Shown piece by piece: positions 16,269-37,729 of a stretch of 52,853 nt of DNA. Origin of the DNA: Candidatus Heimdallarchaeota archaeon (GTDB taxonomy: Archaea; Asgardarchaeota; Wukongarchaeia; Wukongarchaeales; JBHIFL01). The translations under genes were made by a program, and so were the position numbers. The stretch's first letter is position 1. Each line of letters starts with the position of its first letter. Under the pieces are notes generated by a model, which was given only the letters and a program-made list of their open reading frames with translations, did not search any database and was not told the origin of the DNA. The stretch covers positions 1 through 52,853 of the forward strand of contig JBHIFL010000020.1 in assembly GCA_046761065.1 (NCBI GenBank), given 5' to 3'.

Positions 16269-16658
16269 AGAAGTGATGAGTGGAAGGACGACTGCCGGGA
16301 GCCATGGTTCAGCTGTGGTGCCTGAGGAAACTCCGCCCACTATGAGAAACCCGGATACCGAAAGGTGTAAACCGAGAGGTTTGGCAACGGAATAGAAACG
16401 AAACGCCCGCCAGCAGATGGCGAGGATACGGCTGAGAGGCATTTTAATGCCTCAAGAAGACATGAACAATGTGTCGAGCAAACCCGTTGAGGACGCTGGT
16501 GGAAACGTTGAAACGACCGTCCCCGGGAGTGCAAGCTCAAATTGGTCTCTGGTGATTGCTCTTGAAGAGACGGGTAGAGCGCTTAGATTGATGTCGTCAG
16601 GGTCGAATGAATTGTTTGACCGAAACAAAAGGCGGGTTACTCCCCACACCTCACTTCT
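16269..16658 (+). ncRNA. rnpB: RNase P RNA (archaeal)
   Basis: GAGGAAACTCCGCCC (16324-16338) and AACAAAAGGCGGGTTA (16624-16639) form P4; terminal helix AGAAGTGA/TCACTTCT; AGAAAC, TGAAAC and GTGCAAG conserved regions. Confidence 0.96.
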
Positions 16659-27992: not shown

Positions 27993-29087
27993 TCACAAAA
28001 ATCGTTTTAGTCCAAGATCTAATGCATTATCATAATCATAAGGATCGGTAAACTTTCCTTGAGCAAAAGGACTGTAGACATTACTTAATAAGGCAATAAC
28101 CTGAATAGAATCACCGAGATTAGCATCGATTCCCGCACCCCAAATGACTTCCGCACCAGGAGCAATTCGTTCGGTTATTAAACGCATTGAATATTCAACA
28201 TCCCGCAATTTGAATTCAATTCCACCACTTACAGAAACCAGCGCTTTGGTGGCTGTTCCTATATCAATGTCGTCTAGGAGAGGATTTTGGATGGCCTCCT
28301 CAACAGCCTCTTCCACACAATGTTCACTTGATTGAGATTCTCCCATCCCAATAAGGGCTAATCCCGCTCCTTGTAAAACTTTATGCACATCAGCAAAATC
28401 AACATTGACATCTTGTGGGCGATTAACTAGCTCAGTTATGCTTTTCACAGCTCGAATCAAGATTTCATCAGCAATTTTGAAAGCAGTAAGCATCGATAGA
28501 TTCTCTGAAAGTTCCAAAAGACGCTCATTTGGGATAACAATAATAGCATCACAACTCTTATAAAAGGCTTCCAGCCCCTTGGCTGCATTTTCTCGGCGGA
28601 TTTTGCCTTCCATGCGAAATGGGAGAGTACATATTCCAACCGTCAAAGCATTCTGCTCCATGGCAAGCTTTCCAATTATGGGAGCAGCACCCGTCCCAGT
28701 TCCTCCACCTAAACCACAAACTACAAACACCATATCACCATCAACTACTCTTTGAATGTCAGCAGCACTTTCTTTCGCAGCTGCCTCACCCAATCTTGGA
28801 TCATTGCCTGCACCCCGACCAGAATGGCCAAGTAGAAGTTTTTTATTTGATGTCACACTTAGGAGATGTTGAGCATCTGTATTTACAGCCACAGTCTGAG
28901 CCCCAGCGATGCCAACTTCAACAAGTCGATTAATGGCGTTATTGCCTGCCCCCCCGATGCCAATCACCTGTATCTTTGGCAATGCTTTCTGTAATTTTGT
29001 CGAGATATCATCTTCGTTTGTCGATACAATATGCGGAGGGGATATTTTCTGAATTGAATCTTCTTTTAATAGATCATGGCTCATCAT
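27993..29087 (-). CDS. ftsZ: Cell division GTPase FtsZ
   Basis: GIGGAGNN, NTDAQHL, GLGGGTGTG, T7 loop NVDFADV. Confidence 0.98.
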   Translation of the reverse strand: MMSHDLLKEDSIQKISPPHIVSTNEDDISTKLQKALPKIQVIGIGGAGNNAINRLVEVGIAGAQTVAVNTDAQHLLSVTSNKKLLLGHSGRGAGNDPRLGEAAAKESAADIQRVVDGDMVFVVCGLGGGTGTGAAPIIGKLAMEQNALTVGICTLPFRMEGKIRRENAAKGLEAFYKSCDAIIVIPNERLLELSENLSMLTAFKIADEILIRAVKSITELVNRPQDVNVDFADVHKVLQGAGLALIGMGESQSSEHCVEEAVEEAIQNPLLDDIDIGTATKALVSVSGGIEFKLRDVEYSMRLITERIAPGAEVIWGAGIDANLGDSIQVIALLSNVYSPFAQGKFTDPYDYDNALDLGLKRFL

Positions 29088-29387
29088 CCAAGATACCCCA
29101 TGTATTAGATGGTGTTTTTTTTATGAAAAAAAAGACTGATGACATCCTCCTGTCGCGAGCGGAACATCCAAGTATTAACCAGATTATTCTTCTTAGATCA
29201 ATTTTTTGAACTCTATTGCATTGGGTAAACAGCTCAGAGATGGAAAGATTTCCTAATAAAATTGATAAAAAGCTATATAAAGAAATTAAGCACCAAAAAT
29301 TTCGACTATAATCAAATAAATAGTTAAAAACAGGAATTCTTGCAGAATATTAAAGATACTCACCGCTCAAAAGAGATATCAGAACTA

Positions 29388-29416
29388 AAGATAGCGCCGG
29401 AGGTTAGATCCAAACC
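29388..29416 (-). repeat. Degenerate copy of the tRNA-Ser 3' end (att-like direct repeat)
   Basis: 22/29 identity to 30149-30177 by hand alignment. Confidence 0.5.
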
Positions 29417-29604
29417 TTGGTTTAAATCCTTGTTTTTTACGTCAATCCAACAGTTCGATTAGAGGTTCAATTCAAAGTGCTGGGAGTTAGGTTCACACGT
29501 TTATATTCCACTTTTTATGAGGTGCTAAAACTCAAACACAGTATAAAGTAAAACTATGTGAAGCCGCTCTGTTGTAATATCGAGGCGTGTGTTGCTAACT
29601 GAGG

Positions 29605-29991
29605 CTAAACGTAGAGAAGTGGGCTAAATCCTCTTCTTTTGCCAAGTCGATATCCCAGATAGGTTCCTATTACATAGGAGACTGGCATGGACAAAAATAG
29701 CCTGAGTAGCTCATCCATCTCTATCCAGGCTGGAGGACTAAGGACACGGTATAACAGAAAATTTGTGGTACCATATATAATAAAGCCAAAAATGAATGCT
29801 CCGCAGATTGTCCATGTTAATTGCCAGAATTTGAGGCTTCCTATTTTGTTAATTTTGAAACCCACAAAAGTCAAGAATGGAGCTATTATGGTGTAAAATA
29901 ATGCGCCTTCCAAAGTCGTATAGCCAGTTATTTTCGTGAAATAATCAAGCCATGTAAATAGAAACAAGACAACGTAGAGTGATATTGCCAA
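29605..29991 (-). CDS. Small hypothetical membrane protein (~4 TM)
   Basis: Hydrophobic segments across 128 aa. Confidence 0.6.
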   Translation of the reverse strand: MAISLYVVLFLFTWLDYFTKITGYTTLEGALFYTIIAPFLTFVGFKINKIGSLKFWQLTWTICGAFIFGFIIYGTTNFLLYRVLSPPAWIEMDELLRLFLSMPVSYVIGTYLGYRLGKRRGFSPLLYV

Positions 29992-30152
29992 TCACACCAT
30001 AAATCTATGTGACACCCTTTTTTTCTCCGACCACTTTTCTTGTCATGCATTTTTTTAATAATTAAACGAGTCTGAAGTCAAAATTAAACTTTTTTAACCA
30101 TTAAAGGTATCTGCAAAAAGTCTAGAAAAAAGCTTAAAATGCGAAGGTAAGA

Positions 30153-30274
30153 TGGCGCCGGGGGTGGGATTTGAACCCACGTGATGGCAAAGCCATCAGC
30201 AGGTCTCTTGCATAATCCTCCTTTTTAACAGAGTGACTCGAGCCTGCCGCCGTAGTCCACTTGGCTACCCCGGC
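30153..30274 (-). tRNA. tRNA-Ser(CGA) with 32-nt intron at 37/38 (30205-30236); CCA encoded
   Basis: GCCGGGG acceptor, GCAGG-CTCGAG|A-CCTGC anticodon arm, long variable arm TGATGGC/GCCATCA, GGGTTCAAATCCC. Confidence 0.95.
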
Positions 30275-30433
30275 GGTTATTAATTTCTTTGTTTTTGATT
30301 TACGAATAGTTGGAGTTTATGCAAATTAAAGTCAAAGTTTTTGAAAAGAATTTTATTCGACTCATATTTAAAAACGATTTTGATACTTATTCGATAAAGG
30401 AGGATTAAGTGATCTTTAATCATAATTTGTATC

Positions 30434-30710
30434 GTATTTTTGTTGAACAATGCTTGACCAGCTTCTTGCTATTCTTTTTTGGTTATCCACTTGGTCTCGG
30501 ACATATTCTTCCTTGACAAATTCGACCCCCCTAATCCAAACGCTATGTTTGCGCTCAGGCGGAGCAACTATTTTTATCGTCATTGAATCAGGGGTAGGGC
30601 TTTCAGTTCTTTTTGCATTCGTTCAGCTATGCCGTCAAACATTGTAGGCCCACTACTTAAAACCGCGTTGTTATACAATTCCCTTTGGTATCCCGATCAC
30701 ACTTCATAAT
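30434..30710 (-). pseudogene. Actin pseudogene fragment (C-terminal ~93 codons)
   Basis: Reconstructed [63 protein letters not shown]...WITKKE*QEAGxSIVQQKY with four frameshifts and one stop. Confidence 0.92.
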
Positions 30711-31170
30711 CTTATGGGAGGAGAGCATATTTTAAAGTGTTTTTTCGGAAGTTTGAATTACACAGAAAAGGAGCTGCTACCCTAAAAAAGGTAAGCCCTT
30801 CCAGAACTTCACTGACATTACCATTGAGATTTAAAAATGAATCTCGACTCCTTCTAAGGTTGGATTCCAAGTTATAAGGGTTTCGCCTAATTTATACGTC
30901 CTTATTGTGATTAAGACCCAATAAAAGTAAAAAATTAGCCATTTAGTTATTAAACATTGTAAGAAGACAATTAATGGTAATAAAAGACAGAAGCGAGAAT
31001 AATTTATACCGAACCATTCTGAACCTAGTCACATCCCATCATTGCTGGGTTATGCCATCACGCTGTAATTATATGCCATCATTAACAAAATTGACTTAAT
31101 AAAAATTATTCATTACCAAACTCATTTGGCACCATTGCCTAATTGAACTGATATTTCCATCGGATATCAA

Positions 31171-34100
31171 TTAAACATATTCAGACAGACGCAACCGAGG
31201 AGTTATACAGAAGGATAATAGTTCTTGAGTCAGGAGCTTGAATGCATAGCTCATTGTCACTCGTGCAACACTTGACACGTCACCACAAATTGGACAATAG
31301 CTTTTATCTCTCTGCCGGTCATAAGTGGCGAGTAAGCCACATTTTTCGCATACTAGGACTTCGACTCGATCGGATTCATCAAGTAAGCGCTCTTTAAGGA
31401 GCAAGGAAGCTCCATGCCCAATCAAGCAATCGCGTTCCATTTCACCAAATCGTAAACCGCCTTCACGGGCTCGACCTTCGGTTGGTTGGCGTGTTAGGAT
31501 TTGGATTGGGCCCCGTGCACGAGCATGAAGTTTATCAACAACCATGTGATGGAGCTTTTGGATATAGGTCATCCCAATAAAGATTTGGGCTTCAAATTGT
31601 TTTCCTGTGATTCCATCATACATTACCGATTTACCATAAGGGTGGAATCCCAATTGTTTTAATTGTTCCAAGAGATTGGAGGAGTCTACGCCTTCGAAGA
31701 CAGTGCCATCAACTTCTTTACCAGTCATAGCACTCAGGATAGCAGCTATGCTCTCAAACATTTGGCCAATAGTCATCCGAGAAGGAAAGGCATGAGGATT
31801 GATTAAGATATCTGGAATAATCCCATCCTCTGTAAATGGCAAATCTTCTTGGGTGGCTATAAGGCCGACTATTCCTTTTTGGCCATGTCTTGAAGCAAAT
31901 TTGTCTCCAAGTTCAGGAATTCTGTGATCTCTCACTTTCACTTTTACAAGTTTGTTTCCTTCTGAAGTTTCACTTAATAGGACTGTATCAACAATACCCT
32001 TTTCACCATGCCGCATGTTCACGCTGGTTTCTCGCCGGATTGGTGAAACTCTCTCGAAATGCCGATATTCTTCCAAGAAACGTGGCGGACTAGTCCTTCC
32101 AATGAGAACTTCTTTGCTTTCAACTTCGATCTCAGGTTCGATAACCCCATCGGATTCGCTCAAGTGGCGGTAAGCCTCTGCAGCACGATAACCCCTCACA
32201 TCCTTCTTGGGAACTTCAAACCGATCTTCCTGTCCTCCAGGATATTTCTTTTCTTCTGCATCATAACACCGGAAAAAGGAAGAACGAGCCAAGCCGCGAT
32301 CAATACTTGCTTTATTAAGAATGAATGCATCATGAATGTTATACCCTTGAAAACTAAGAACTGCACAAACAAAATTTTGACCCGCAGGACGGCGCATGAA
32401 ACCGATAATATCTGTGGGACGGGTCTTCACCAACGGCGCTTGAGAGTAGTGCAATAGATGACCTCGGGTATCCACACGGAGTTTATAGTTTGAAGAATAA
32501 AGCCCTAATGCTTGTTTTGCCATTCCTGCTTCATATGTATTCCTTGGGCTTTGGTTATGCTCCGCATAAGGGATTAAAGATGCAGTAATTCCAAGAATGA
32601 CAGCAGGAGAAATTTCAAGATGTGTGTGTTCCTCAGTAATTTGTTCTGGATGAAGGGCAATATATGCTTCTTCTTCTTCTTCAGCGTCAAGATACTCCAC
32701 GAGACCTTGACGGACGAGATCGCTCCAATTCCACTCACCTTTTCTTATTTTCTCGACATGATTTGGTTGTACCAGAGGTTTACCATTTTCCACAATGATT
32801 AAAGGGCGTCTAACGCGCCCTGCATCACAATTGATTTGGATTTCCTTTGTTTCTGCATAATAGGCTATATTCACCTGATCTCTTAGCTCACCTTTTCTTC
32901 GAAGCCTTCGAATTCGTTTCCCCAAGTCTTCTGGGTCATGGTGTACTCCAACTAGACGTCCATTGAGAAAAACATGAACGAAATCATCTCCCATAGAGTT
33001 ATCAGAAATAGGGACAACACCTAATGAGGTATATAGTTTCTGTTCGACCTCTCGTTCATTGATCCCTACACTAATATAAGCAGTGAGAGCAAGATTCTTG
33101 ACCAATCCACAATTTGGACCCTCTGGTGTTTCGTTGGGACAGATTTTGCCCCAATGGGTCGGGTGTAAATCACGAGCCTCGAAGTGTGGCTGACTCCTAC
33201 TTAATGGACTCACTACTCGCCGTAAATGACTCAACATTGACATATAATTCGTTCGATCAAGTAGCTGGGATACTCCCGCCTTTCCTCCAACCCAATTTCC
33301 TGTTGCAAGTGCATGTCTCAAGCGTTCTGTAATTACATCTGCTCGGACAACCGTATTTAACGAGGGGATTTTTCCCTTGGATGCAGATCGCTCAATTTGG
33401 TATTTAATGTCACGGGTTAGATTTAAAAAAGCAACGCGGAAGAGGGACAACAAAAGATCGCCAGCTAGCTTCAATCGCTTGTTTGCATAATGATCCTTAT
33501 CATCAGGCCTTCGTTTGTCCTGTTCAAGATCGATCAACCGTCTTGCCATCTGAGCAAGATAAATCGCCTTGTCTTTTCTATTGGCAGCCTCACTTCCTAA
33601 ATGAGGTAAAAGGTAATTATCAAGAACTTGTTGTGCTCTTTGGATCCGATATTGCTTTGTTTGACCTACAGCAACACGCCGACCTATATAATCTAAAGCT
33701 TCCTCTTCATCCTTTAATTCTGATGCCTTTTCAAGAACTGGGATAAGATCCTGTACCATCTCAGGAGATTTTGCAATCATATTTGCGATTTTTTGGTCTG
33801 ATTCGACTCCAAGTGCCTTCAAGAGAATCCCGAGGGGAACTGCTCGAGGAACACTAGGAAACATCACGACGATATTGCTATCTTTCTGCCGTTCAACAAT
33901 AACTGGTGCCCTAAATCCTCGAATTGTACTAAAAACTTTTGCTTGACTTGTAGTCGATCCTGTTCTTCTGGTTTCGATTAGAATTCTGTTTGGTGCGAGA
34001 TCTTCTTGCGTTACAAGAACCCGTTCACTTCCATTAATGATGAAATATCCACCCGGGTCATCAGGATCCTCACCATGTGCGATAAGCTGCTCACGTGACA

Positions 34101-34500
34101 TCCTAGATAGGGGACACCTGTTGGACTTCAACATAATAGGCATGATCCCGGCAAATACTTTAATAGGCTCATCAGGATGCTCAACACCATCTTGAACATT
34201 AACAGGAATCATATGAAGGTATATAGGCGCTCCATAGGTCAGATTTCGAACCCGGGTCTCCATTGGAAATATAGATTTCTCAGATCCATCCGCTTCTTTG
34301 ACGGTTGGTTCACCTACTTCGATTTTGTCCAGTTTAACACAATAGTTCTCAATATCAGGATTTATCGTTCCAATGGCATCAACGATTGTCTGGAGCCCAG
34401 TCTCAATAAACACGTTAAAGCTATCAAGATGGAGTCGAACAAGCCCTAGTTCATTGAACATAGCATCTAGTAGATCCCAACGATCATCGACATTTATCAA
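31171..34500 (-). CDS. rpoB: DNA-directed RNA polymerase subunit B (Rpo2, unsplit)
   Basis: [58 protein letters not shown]-terminal zinc finger. Confidence 0.99.
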
Positions 34501-35947: not shown

Positions 35948-37729
35948 CTATACATTTACTTCATATTCAGGTTCATACTCTTCAATAATTCCTTCCCCCT
36001 TTGCTATATAGGTAATTGTTATTGTATCATCAGGTCGTATTTTGTCTATGAGCCAAGAGATTTTAGATCCATCCTCATCTTCACTTTTTATAGGCCTAAG
36101 AAAAGTTGGCTCAAATTGTATAATTTGAAAGCCGATAGGAAGCTTATCATGAATTGTAATGCCTTTGATTTCAATTTCTCCTTCGTTTCTTATTTCAAGA
36201 TCAATCTGATATTCATCAACTTCTATAGGGATCACTGATTTGGTACAAATTAATTTTCGACGGACATGTCTTACATGAATGATACTTAATCCAGTATAAT
36301 GAGCTTCAAGGCCAAGAGGATATCCATTCAAGAATATTTCATATCCTGCTTCATATTCCCCAGGGCGGGGAGCTAATGCAATCAATGGATACCTTAAGAG
36401 TACTTCCCCCCCAGACTCTATTTTCCCAGTGATTTTTTGTAAATCATTAATCTCTAAAACCAGTCGATGGACTTTTGAGGGATCTCTGTCTTCCGGAATT
36501 AAACTTGACTTATCAGGGCTTATTTCGATATCTTTGGCAATGAATTTGGCTTCAAAGAGAGGAGGAGGTCTGAATCGCTTAGGGATAGTATCTTTGATTT
36601 TTATTTGATTAAGATGTGATGAACCTATATTTCGAAGTAATATGGAGACCTCCAAAGGCGTTTCCACAAGACCAAAAACATCTCGAGGACTATATGATTT
36701 GAAGATTTCAGCAGCAATTACTGGCAGAAGTGTCCCTTTCTTTGTTATAGTACCTCGAAATGATTTTTTCAGTTCAAAAACAACTCTTGAGGTTATTGTG
36801 CTTTTAAGAACCGGAACATCCATACTATGAATTTCAAAATTATAAGACCAATCACTTAATGGATCTACCATCACTTTAGGCTGCTTTACAATGTGAAATT
36901 CTCCCACATTATCAGTTATTTTCAGATTTTCAATATACATTGTGAGATTGCTTTTATTATGAAATTCAAGTGAACAATTCCATAATCCATGTTTTTGCTC
37001 TGATTCGTCCTTACGAATCTCAATTATTTTCTTTGATGTGCTTGTTAAGTCTATAATAAGATTAGTCTTCGCATAATTCTTAATTTCATATTGAATTTCG
37101 ATCTCTCCTGCATCATAGGGAGTTTTTTGGCTTGCTTCGATCTCCGAATATAAATGCAATTCAGCTGTCGAGTTAGGAGCCAGGGTTTGTAATGTCCAAG
37201 ACATCAGTGATTGCTTTCGATCAAATTTAGCCAATCCCATAGAGATTTTCTTTTGAATAGGTTCTGAAAAGTCCTCAGGGATTCTCTTATGCAGTGAAAT
37301 GTTTGAAATATCCATTTCTGATGTATTATTAAGAAGGATCCTGAACATTACTCCTGTTTTTCTCTGAATTGGAAGAGATAAATTTAGCTCCTTGGGGATT
37401 TTATCATCCTGATAATTTGTGTCGATCTCTTCCCTTATTTCGAGTATAGAAGGAGGTGAAATCCTCTCGAAATTATGACACCAAACCCTTTTATCTGGAA
37501 TAAGACCTACCAAGAATTTTTCACAGAGATCGCCATCTAATGAGAGTTCTGTATTCCAAATTGGTGATTTGGAGGGATTTACAATCTTCACCATACCCTT
37601 TAATGCTGTTGACAAGAGTGAGTTATCTCCATCTAATGTGCAAGTCTCATTTTCCAATACTTCAATGATTAATTTGTCGTATTGAGGAACTTCAACTACT
37701 TCTAGTTCTTTTTTTGCCATGATAAGCAC
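35948..37729 (-). CDS. Cytoplasmic multi-beta-sandwich protein: mu-homology-domain-like N-terminus plus Ig/DUF11-like domains
   Basis: No signal peptide or TM. IIEVLENETCTLDGDNSLL...KGMVKI and G.AKFD....MSWTL...EIQYEI resemble the adaptin-mu C-terminal domain; later DTIP/DKLP...ISWLI..IRP..ITY segments are DUF11-like. Confidence 0.55.
   Translation of the reverse strand: MLIMAKKELEVVEVPQYDKLIIEVLENETCTLDGDNSLLSTALKGMVKIVNPSKSPIWNTELSLDGDLCEKFLVGLIPDKRVWCHNFERISPPSILEIREEIDTNYQDDKIPKELNLSLPIQRKTGVMFRILLNNTSEMDISNISLHKRIPEDFSEPIQKKISMGLAKFDRKQSLMSWTLQTLAPNSTAELHLYSEIEASQKTPYDAGEIEIQYEIKNYAKTNLIIDLTSTSKKIIEIRKDESEQKHGLWNCSLEFHNKSNLTMYIENLKITDNVGEFHIVKQPKVMVDPLSDWSYNFEIHSMDVPVLKSTITSRVVFELKKSFRGTITKKGTLLPVIAAEIFKSYSPRDVFGLVETPLEVSILLRNIGSSHLNQIKIKDTIPKRFRPPPLFEAKFIAKDIEISPDKSSLIPEDRDPSKVHRLVLEINDLQKITGKIESGGEVLLRYPLIALAPRPGEYEAGYEIFLNGYPLGLEAHYTGLSIIHVRHVRRKLICTKSVIPIEVDEYQIDLEIRNEGEIEIKGITIHDKLPIGFQIIQFEPTFLRPIKSEDEDGSKISWLIDKIRPDDTITITYIAKGEGIIEEYEPEYEVNV

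Follow-up and report, generated by a model that had tools for sequence, protein, structure and literature searches.

Among the 'eukaryotic signature' genes that are used to argue for an origin of eukaryotes from Asgard archaea, actin holds a central place, and the argument takes such genes in Asgard genomes as ancestral. The locus described here raises the question of whether a eukaryote-like actin found in an Asgard chromosome must be an inheritance of this kind, or whether it could have come from elsewhere. It lies in the window, by which we mean the whole 52,853-nt stretch of DNA that was analysed. This is contig C20 of an Asgard bin of 4.4 Mb in 234 contigs (91% complete, 8.2% contamination), the sole representative of a GTDB family whose class has three genomes. 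A sequence-only reading of the window had proposed a hidden actin pseudogene at 30434-30710, between tRNA-Ser and rpoB, and Pfam, tblastn and frameshift-aware alignments agree that it is real. The features of the locus are as follows.

30153..30274, minus strand: tRNA-Ser(CGA) gene with a 32-nt intron (Rfam RF00005, 43.7 bits; ARAGORN, introns allowed)
30275..30436, minus strand: spacer between remnant and tRNA gene, 24% GC, homologous to sister contig L155 from ~30420-30446 downwards
30437..30731, minus strand: conventional (eukaryote-type) actin remnant, equivalent to residues ~277-373 of a 375-aa actin
30731-30684, 30681-30592, 30589-30533, 30531-30457 and 30454-30437, minus strand: pieces of the actin remnant, from frameshift-aware protein-to-DNA alignment
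30469..30471, minus strand: in-frame TAG stop, replacing the conserved Tyr of K.EYDE and one substitution from TAY
30732..31170, minus strand: AT-rich spacer between the rpoB stop and the remnant, 439 nt, 33% GC, in the segment absent from the sisters
31171..34500, minus strand: rpoB, unsplit RNA polymerase subunit B of 1109 aa, with seven Rpb2 Pfam domains, single copy in the genome

Both neighbours had been named correctly from the letters, and ARAGORN misses the tRNA gene in default mode and finds it when introns are allowed. The tRNA-Ser(CGA) and rpoB are native neighbours, the former being conserved in both sister contigs (L154 and L155), and around the remnant lie housekeeping genes of the ordinary archaeal kind, including those for FtsZ, D-aminoacyl-tRNA deacylase, Ogg, DJ-1/PfpI and RpoB. 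Elsewhere in the window there is an archaeal RNase P RNA (16276-16651, plus strand; Rfam RF00373, 193 bits) and a gene for a 593-aa protein (35948-37729, minus strand) with a DUF11 match and a sub-threshold match to the adaptor-complex medium subunit (mu-homology; 30.6 bits against 31.6).

Homology to actin runs from about 30731 down to 30437, as judged by three-frame translation of the minus strand together with frameshift-aware protein-to-DNA alignment. What is left is the last ~97 codons of an actin, the start codon and the N-terminal three quarters being absent, and the earlier statement that only the C-terminal quarter survives is thus borne out. Its frame is broken by four frameshifts, three of them of 2 nt (30683-30682, 30591-30590 and 30456-30455) and one of 1 nt (30532), as well as by the TAG codon, and there are two single-codon deletions. 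The Pfam actin family (PF00022) matches the remnant at 37.8 bits (cut-off 27, E 1.8e-9) over model positions 322-407 of 410, with 4 stops within the match, and a eukaryotic actin finds the region by tblastn at E 2e-18. A hand count had put about 43 of 63 residues as identical to beta-actin; from IMKCD to WIGGS, 45 of the 63 equal those of a fish cytoplasmic actin, and the motifs GIA.RMQKE and IKI.APPERK.SVWIGGS are present. The remnant does not provide a complete actin-fold ATPase in an open frame, with both phosphate loops and the adenosine motif, and the longest minus-strand ORF between rpoB and the tRNA gene is at most 56 aa.

Upstream of about 30731 the actin signal falls to the level of shuffled DNA, with a protein alignment score of 47 against 43.8 +/- 6.2 for the shuffles and with nucleotide-level scores inside the shuffle range. 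An extension of the pseudogene to about 30974, which a relaxed alignment gave, was dropped as no better than shuffles at the protein or the nucleotide level. Shuffle tests found no actin homology in the 439-nt spacer, and blastn against the genome found neither a copy of this spacer nor further pieces of the remnant's actin elsewhere. The homology ends abruptly where CTCTCCTCCCATAAG, a pyrimidine tract followed by AG (30711-30731, minus strand), stands directly 5' of the IMKCD codons. This sequence resembles a splice acceptor and may be one; equally, it could consist of decayed actin codons. The intron of the Reticulomyxa actin was considered as the cause of this 5' edge and rejected, since it lies near residues 95-110 and not 277.

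Comparison with other actins proved informative as to where the remnant belongs. When 5.8 billion proteins were searched with a read-through of 78 residues of the remnant, the top single-domain matches (73%) were actins of 375-377 aa on 1.2-1.5-kb JGI contigs, and the actin of Reticulomyxa filosa matched at 71%; the closest relatives used below were picked by this similarity to the remnant. Over 95 columns the remnant is 67-71% identical to Reticulomyxa-like actins (64-67 residues), 52-59% to those of animals, fungi and plants (49-56), 45-58% to viractins (43-55) and 44-54% to Asgard lokiactins (41-51), the two intact copies of the genome among them. Identity to a set of 31 Asgard actins from 18 families is 44-56%, whereas these are mutually 68-83% identical, and 46 of 88 residues are shared with the lokiactins of the genome itself. 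The Reticulomyxa-like reference clade is truly eukaryotic, since the R. filosa gene has an intron (a gene range of 1210 nt for 377 aa) and P0024, a member of the clade, has 83% identity with fish actin as against 61% with lokiactin. At the 10 columns where both eukaryote groups differ from Asgard actins the remnant has the eukaryote state six times and the Asgard state never, and at the 12 where Reticulomyxa-like actins differ from other eukaryotes it has the Reticulomyxa-like state seven times and the other state once. When Asgard actins are taken as outgroup, about five of those seven shared states are derived.

Phylogenetic analysis points the same way. In a maximum likelihood tree built from 61 sequences over 106 columns (IQ-TREE, LG+C20+F+G4), Asgard and eukaryote-type actins fall on either side of a branch with support of 100/99, and the remnant lies within the Reticulomyxa-like clade (100/100) on an end branch of 0.58. 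With Myxococcota and viral actins added, the enlarged tree has a clade of Reticulomyxa-like actins, four Myxococcota actins and the remnant (100/98), and the division between Asgard and eukaryote-type actins has 100/99 there as well. Forcing the remnant out of the eukaryote-type actins altogether gives a tree that an AU test fails to reject (delta lnL 9.7, p 0.124), a test that has little power here, with 95 sites and a long branch. Although that p value stands, the remnant appears from its sequence to nest in the Reticulomyxa-like subgroup of crown-eukaryote actins. The sequence-only reading had called the fragment closer to conventional actin than to lokiactin and had suggested a tree as the check; the identity gradient and the tree both agree with it, the remnant falling outside the lokiactins and among the eukaryote-type actins. 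That the remnant might be a decayed lokiactin was rejected because it has none of the 10 Asgard-specific states, is 44-54% identical to Asgard actins and is separated from them by the 100/99 branch, but here too the AU value of 0.124 has to be set beside these figures. A giant virus, put forward earlier as one possible source, was rejected as well: sampled viractins form a separate clade, at 45-58% identity, and are more distant from the remnant than are the Reticulomyxa-like actins.

Two origins had been offered at first, a transfer into the archaeon and a lost Asgard paralogue, and it is the first that is favoured by the evidence. The second holds that the remnant descends from an ancient Asgard actin more eukaryote-like than lokiactin, which was lost elsewhere. 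The AU result (p 0.124 for a position outside the eukaryote-type actins) leaves some room for this, as does the small number of relatives that the host has, being the only member of its family in a three-genome class. Such a paralogue would nevertheless be expected below all eukaryotic actins and not inside one crown subgroup, and it accords poorly with about five subgroup-derived states beside no Asgard-specific ones, with the unequal distance of the remnant to eukaryotes (67-71% vs 52-59%), and with its absence from 400 Asgard genomes and from the same locus in two sisters. We consider this origin very improbable.

The surveys behind this statement were broad. A full-length Reticulomyxa-like query found lokiactins everywhere among the 400 Asgard species genomes and nothing more than 62% identical; the other two genomes of the class contain lokiactins and divergent actin-fold proteins and no actin of the remnant's type. 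Among the best 80 loci of 185,579 species genomes, archaeal actins reach at most 66% in the C-terminus, with the exception of one in Haladaptatus, which is on a stray contig of 1.5 kb. The genome has two intact lokiactin genes of its own (C42:361-1467 and C5:20217-21323), whose proteins are 93% identical and which are either true paralogues or the product of two strains in one bin. It also has an ADF/cofilin gene (G000:C12:51438-51791; L153:1471-1899, minus strand), the nearest relatives of which are metagenome proteins 73-92% identical to it, one of them on a 232-kb contig; there is no eukaryote among its 12 hits, and thus nothing suggests a recent eukaryotic import of this gene, so that the idea of its co-transfer with the actin was set aside.

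Sister loci were found by scanning metagenome contigs with the C-terminus of RpoB. L155 is a 14-kb contig with an rpoB 91% identical in nucleotides to that of the window, and L154 is of 3.4 kb, at 78%. Both keep the order rpoB - tRNA-Ser - ftsZ, and neither has an actin match at the locus. Intact orthologues in sister genomes, which had been proposed as a thing to look for, were therefore not found, either in these two contigs or in the 400 Asgard genomes. In place of the roughly 740 nt of the window, the sisters have only about 135-260 nt. The stop codon of rpoB forms the 5' edge of the lineage-specific segment, and the spacer at 30275..30436 marks its 3' edge, since homology to L155 holds from about 30420-30446 downwards. 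As only some 135-150 nt of L155 separate the rpoB stop from the resumed homology (window ~30446-30420), the window-specific segment spans from this stop to the point where the actin homology gives out. Most simply, the segment would have been inserted in this lineage once L155 had branched off; two independent deletions in the sisters could be an alternative.

Other features of this region may be recorded. Repeats or att-like duplications were sought near the tRNA gene, with short chance-level matches only. Across the tRNA gene there is a second lineage-specific segment (29265-30149), 884 nt long in the window against about 126 nt in L155 and about 220 nt in L154, which contains orf128 (29605-29991, minus strand), a hydrophobic ORF of 128 aa. 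This ORF was tried as a clue to the donor and set aside, as it matches no Pfam family and lacks informative Atlas neighbours. The order rpoB - tRNA-Ser - ftsZ (31171-34500, 27993-30274) also means that rpoA1 does not follow rpoB, whereas it does so directly in other Asgards (L045-L047, three genomes). Here rpoA1 is in the middle of contig C2 (G000:C2:15450-18144), with 52% GC against 43% for rpoB, and the stretch of C2 upstream of rpoA1 has no sequence in common with the remnant locus.

Could the locus be an artefact of assembly, in which a chimeric join or eukaryotic contamination brought an actin onto an archaeal contig? The contamination estimate for the bin (8.2%) and the lack of rpoA1 after rpoB, unlike in other Asgard genomes, might raise this suspicion. 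The stretch is present in four hydrothermal-vent metagenome runs from one study. A single contig of 1748 nt covers 30155-31500 with 0 differences in three of these runs, which are perhaps the ones from which the assembly was made and hence not independent of it; in the fourth sample, contigs of 900 and 4709 nt overlap across the locus, with two SNPs (30392 and 31065) and no indel. Depth is even throughout, and the contigs break only within the tRNA gene, whose words are common to many organisms. Because the per-run contigs span both the joins and the frameshifts without indels, these are real at the contig level, and the earlier concern about read continuity is answered at that level, since no chimeric join is seen in the contigs of any of the four runs. 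The archaeal rpoB and tRNA-Ser flank the remnant on single contigs, so that it does not sit in a eukaryotic genome. A contaminating actin would moreover be expected to be intact and not frameshifted, and the order rpoB - tRNA-Ser - ftsZ recurs in two independent sister assemblies, which means that rpoB and rpoA1 are apart in this lineage as such and not through an error of assembly. With even depth and with spanning or overlapping contigs in all four samples, an artefact is hardly credible.

The remnant is most likely a non-functional foreign relic, because its affinities are with modern eukaryotic actins rather than with those of its host. We would put at roughly seven in ten the chance that an actin gene of crown-eukaryote type was acquired horizontally and that the remnant is a functionless fragment of it. 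On this account some 740 bp (31170 to ~30430) would have been inserted directly after the rpoB stop in this lineage only. The 3' 295 bp would represent the last quarter of a Reticulomyxa-like conventional actin, the 5' 439 bp being the unassigned AT-rich spacer. The piece might have arrived already a fragment or have been truncated soon after arrival, and drift since then would account for the four frameshifts, the nonsense codon, the loss of two codons and an amino acid change of about 30% from the nearest sampled relative. Against this explanation stand the small number of residues (~95) on a branch of 0.58, the AU value of 0.124, the choice of relatives by similarity, and the 439 nt upstream, which it leaves unexplained.

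As to the donor, base composition and synonymous sites are of some help. The GC3 of the remnant is 0.44, compared with 0.42 for a Reticulomyxa-like mRNA and 0.97 for the actins of Myxococcota, and this difference makes a high-GC donor unlikely if the insertion was as recent as the sister contigs suggest. At synonymous sites the remnant matches the nearest sampled eukaryote sequence at 58%, against a baseline of 51%; as this is near saturation, the true donor is absent from the samples. There is perhaps an even chance that the donor was a low-GC eukaryote with a Reticulomyxa-like actin. More tentatively, the donation might have come directly from a crown eukaryote, a protist of the sediment with an actin of this type being the probable source, and a full-length copy may once have worked beside the lokiactins.

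Myxococcota deserve attention in this respect, since actins of the same clade occur in them. Intact actin genes are found in Myxococcota MAGs on contigs of up to 243 kb (L067:3188-4318, L068:3179-4318 and L069:2-322; also L075, L088 and L091), and three of their products combine a Reticulomyxa-like C-terminus (84-90%) with a divergent N-terminal part (59-61% overall), with GC3 near 0.97. They have the look of genes related to BARP that passed from eukaryotes to Myxococcota long ago. A different class of sequence is formed by L071-L110, many bacterial and one haloarchaeal isolate assemblies with near-canonical actin contigs of 0.3-2 kb, 72-81% identical to the query C-terminus; these contigs most likely come from eukaryotic contaminants.

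It is conceivable, then, that the immediate donor was a bacterium, a member of the Myxococcota that carried such a eukaryote-derived actin and passed on a fragment of it. Transfer from bacteria to Asgard archaea is common. The Myxococcota genes lie on large high-GC contigs (209 kb for L067, 64 kb for L068 and 35 kb for L069) and are 84-90% identical to the Reticulomyxa-like C-terminus, the enlarged tree pairs the remnant with L068 (96/74) and with L067-L069 (89/88), and a Leu in KEL and a His in ERKHSVWI are common to the remnant and L068. These support values are, however, below a reliable level, and both partners are long-branched. L068 has derived residues (M, N, K, K) at four or more columns at which the remnant retains those of the Reticulomyxa-like actins, and the remnant shares 59-63 of 95 residues with the Myxococcota actins as against 65-67 with the Reticulomyxa-like ones. 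The contrast in GC3 (0.97 vs 0.44), with 27% of third positions matching, is also hard to square with a recent insertion. A bacterial intermediary is on balance unlikely.

Whatever its source, the remnant encodes no actin and most likely has no function: a start codon and an unbroken frame are both missing, the sisters lack the fragment, and there is no excess of signals, sites in consensus scans of the region being no more frequent than in shuffles. Its GC content of 42% (GC3 0.44), between adjoining spacers of 24% and 33% GC, is what is expected of a relic still incompletely decayed. The same coding-like GC, kept between poorer spacers, could instead be taken as a sign that the fragment has been co-opted, as a 3' UTR or terminator of rpoB, an element upstream of the tRNA gene, or a micro-ORF, an ATG-started frame of 55 aa being present at 30416-30583; the remnant also lies on the same strand as both neighbours. 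We regard such a role as most improbable, given that the sister lineages manage without the fragment, that its frame is broken at random places and that the consensus-scan sites are at shuffle level.

If the remnant is foreign, as we favour, the locus would show that Asgard chromosomes can also acquire DNA of a eukaryote-type actin secondarily, which calls for caution in gene-by-gene inference, and it would offer a clean worked example of a foreign lokiactin look-alike. Direct donation by a eukaryote, should it be true, would further mean that signature cytoskeletal genes also flow from eukaryotes back to their closest archaeal relatives. The weight of the case is limited, this being an apparently dead fragment of 300 bp on which no biology depends.

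A eukaryote-type actin in a prokaryote is a known kind of finding, and no earlier archaeal case was found. With the lokiactins and other Asgard actins the remnant has in common the Pfam family, the host phylum and the core APPER..SVWIGGS; it differs from them in lacking motifs of the GLKERLHKE..ELVPEGVE type, in its identity of 44-54% and in the 100/99 split between the two. The viractins of giant viruses (GVMAG contigs in IMG/VR; PMC8850707) are likewise eukaryote-type actins carried outside eukaryotes, but they form a clade of their own (100/96) at 45-58% identity to the remnant. Closest of all is the Reticulomyxa filosa type of actin (P0082, GCA_000512085.1, and many JGI contigs of 1.2-2.2 kb), with which the remnant shares a clade (100/100) and the motifs of that lineage, the difference being that the remnant is a broken quarter gene in an archaeal chromosome, about 30% different from the nearest sampled member and saturated at synonymous sites. 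Comparable too are the eukaryote-derived prokaryotic actins of the BARP / ActM kind, which like the remnant are eukaryote-type actins in a prokaryotic chromosome and whose L067-L069 representatives join it in the 100/98 clade; those are intact genes in Bacteria with 64-69% GC, whereas the remnant is to all appearances a dead archaeal fragment with 42%.
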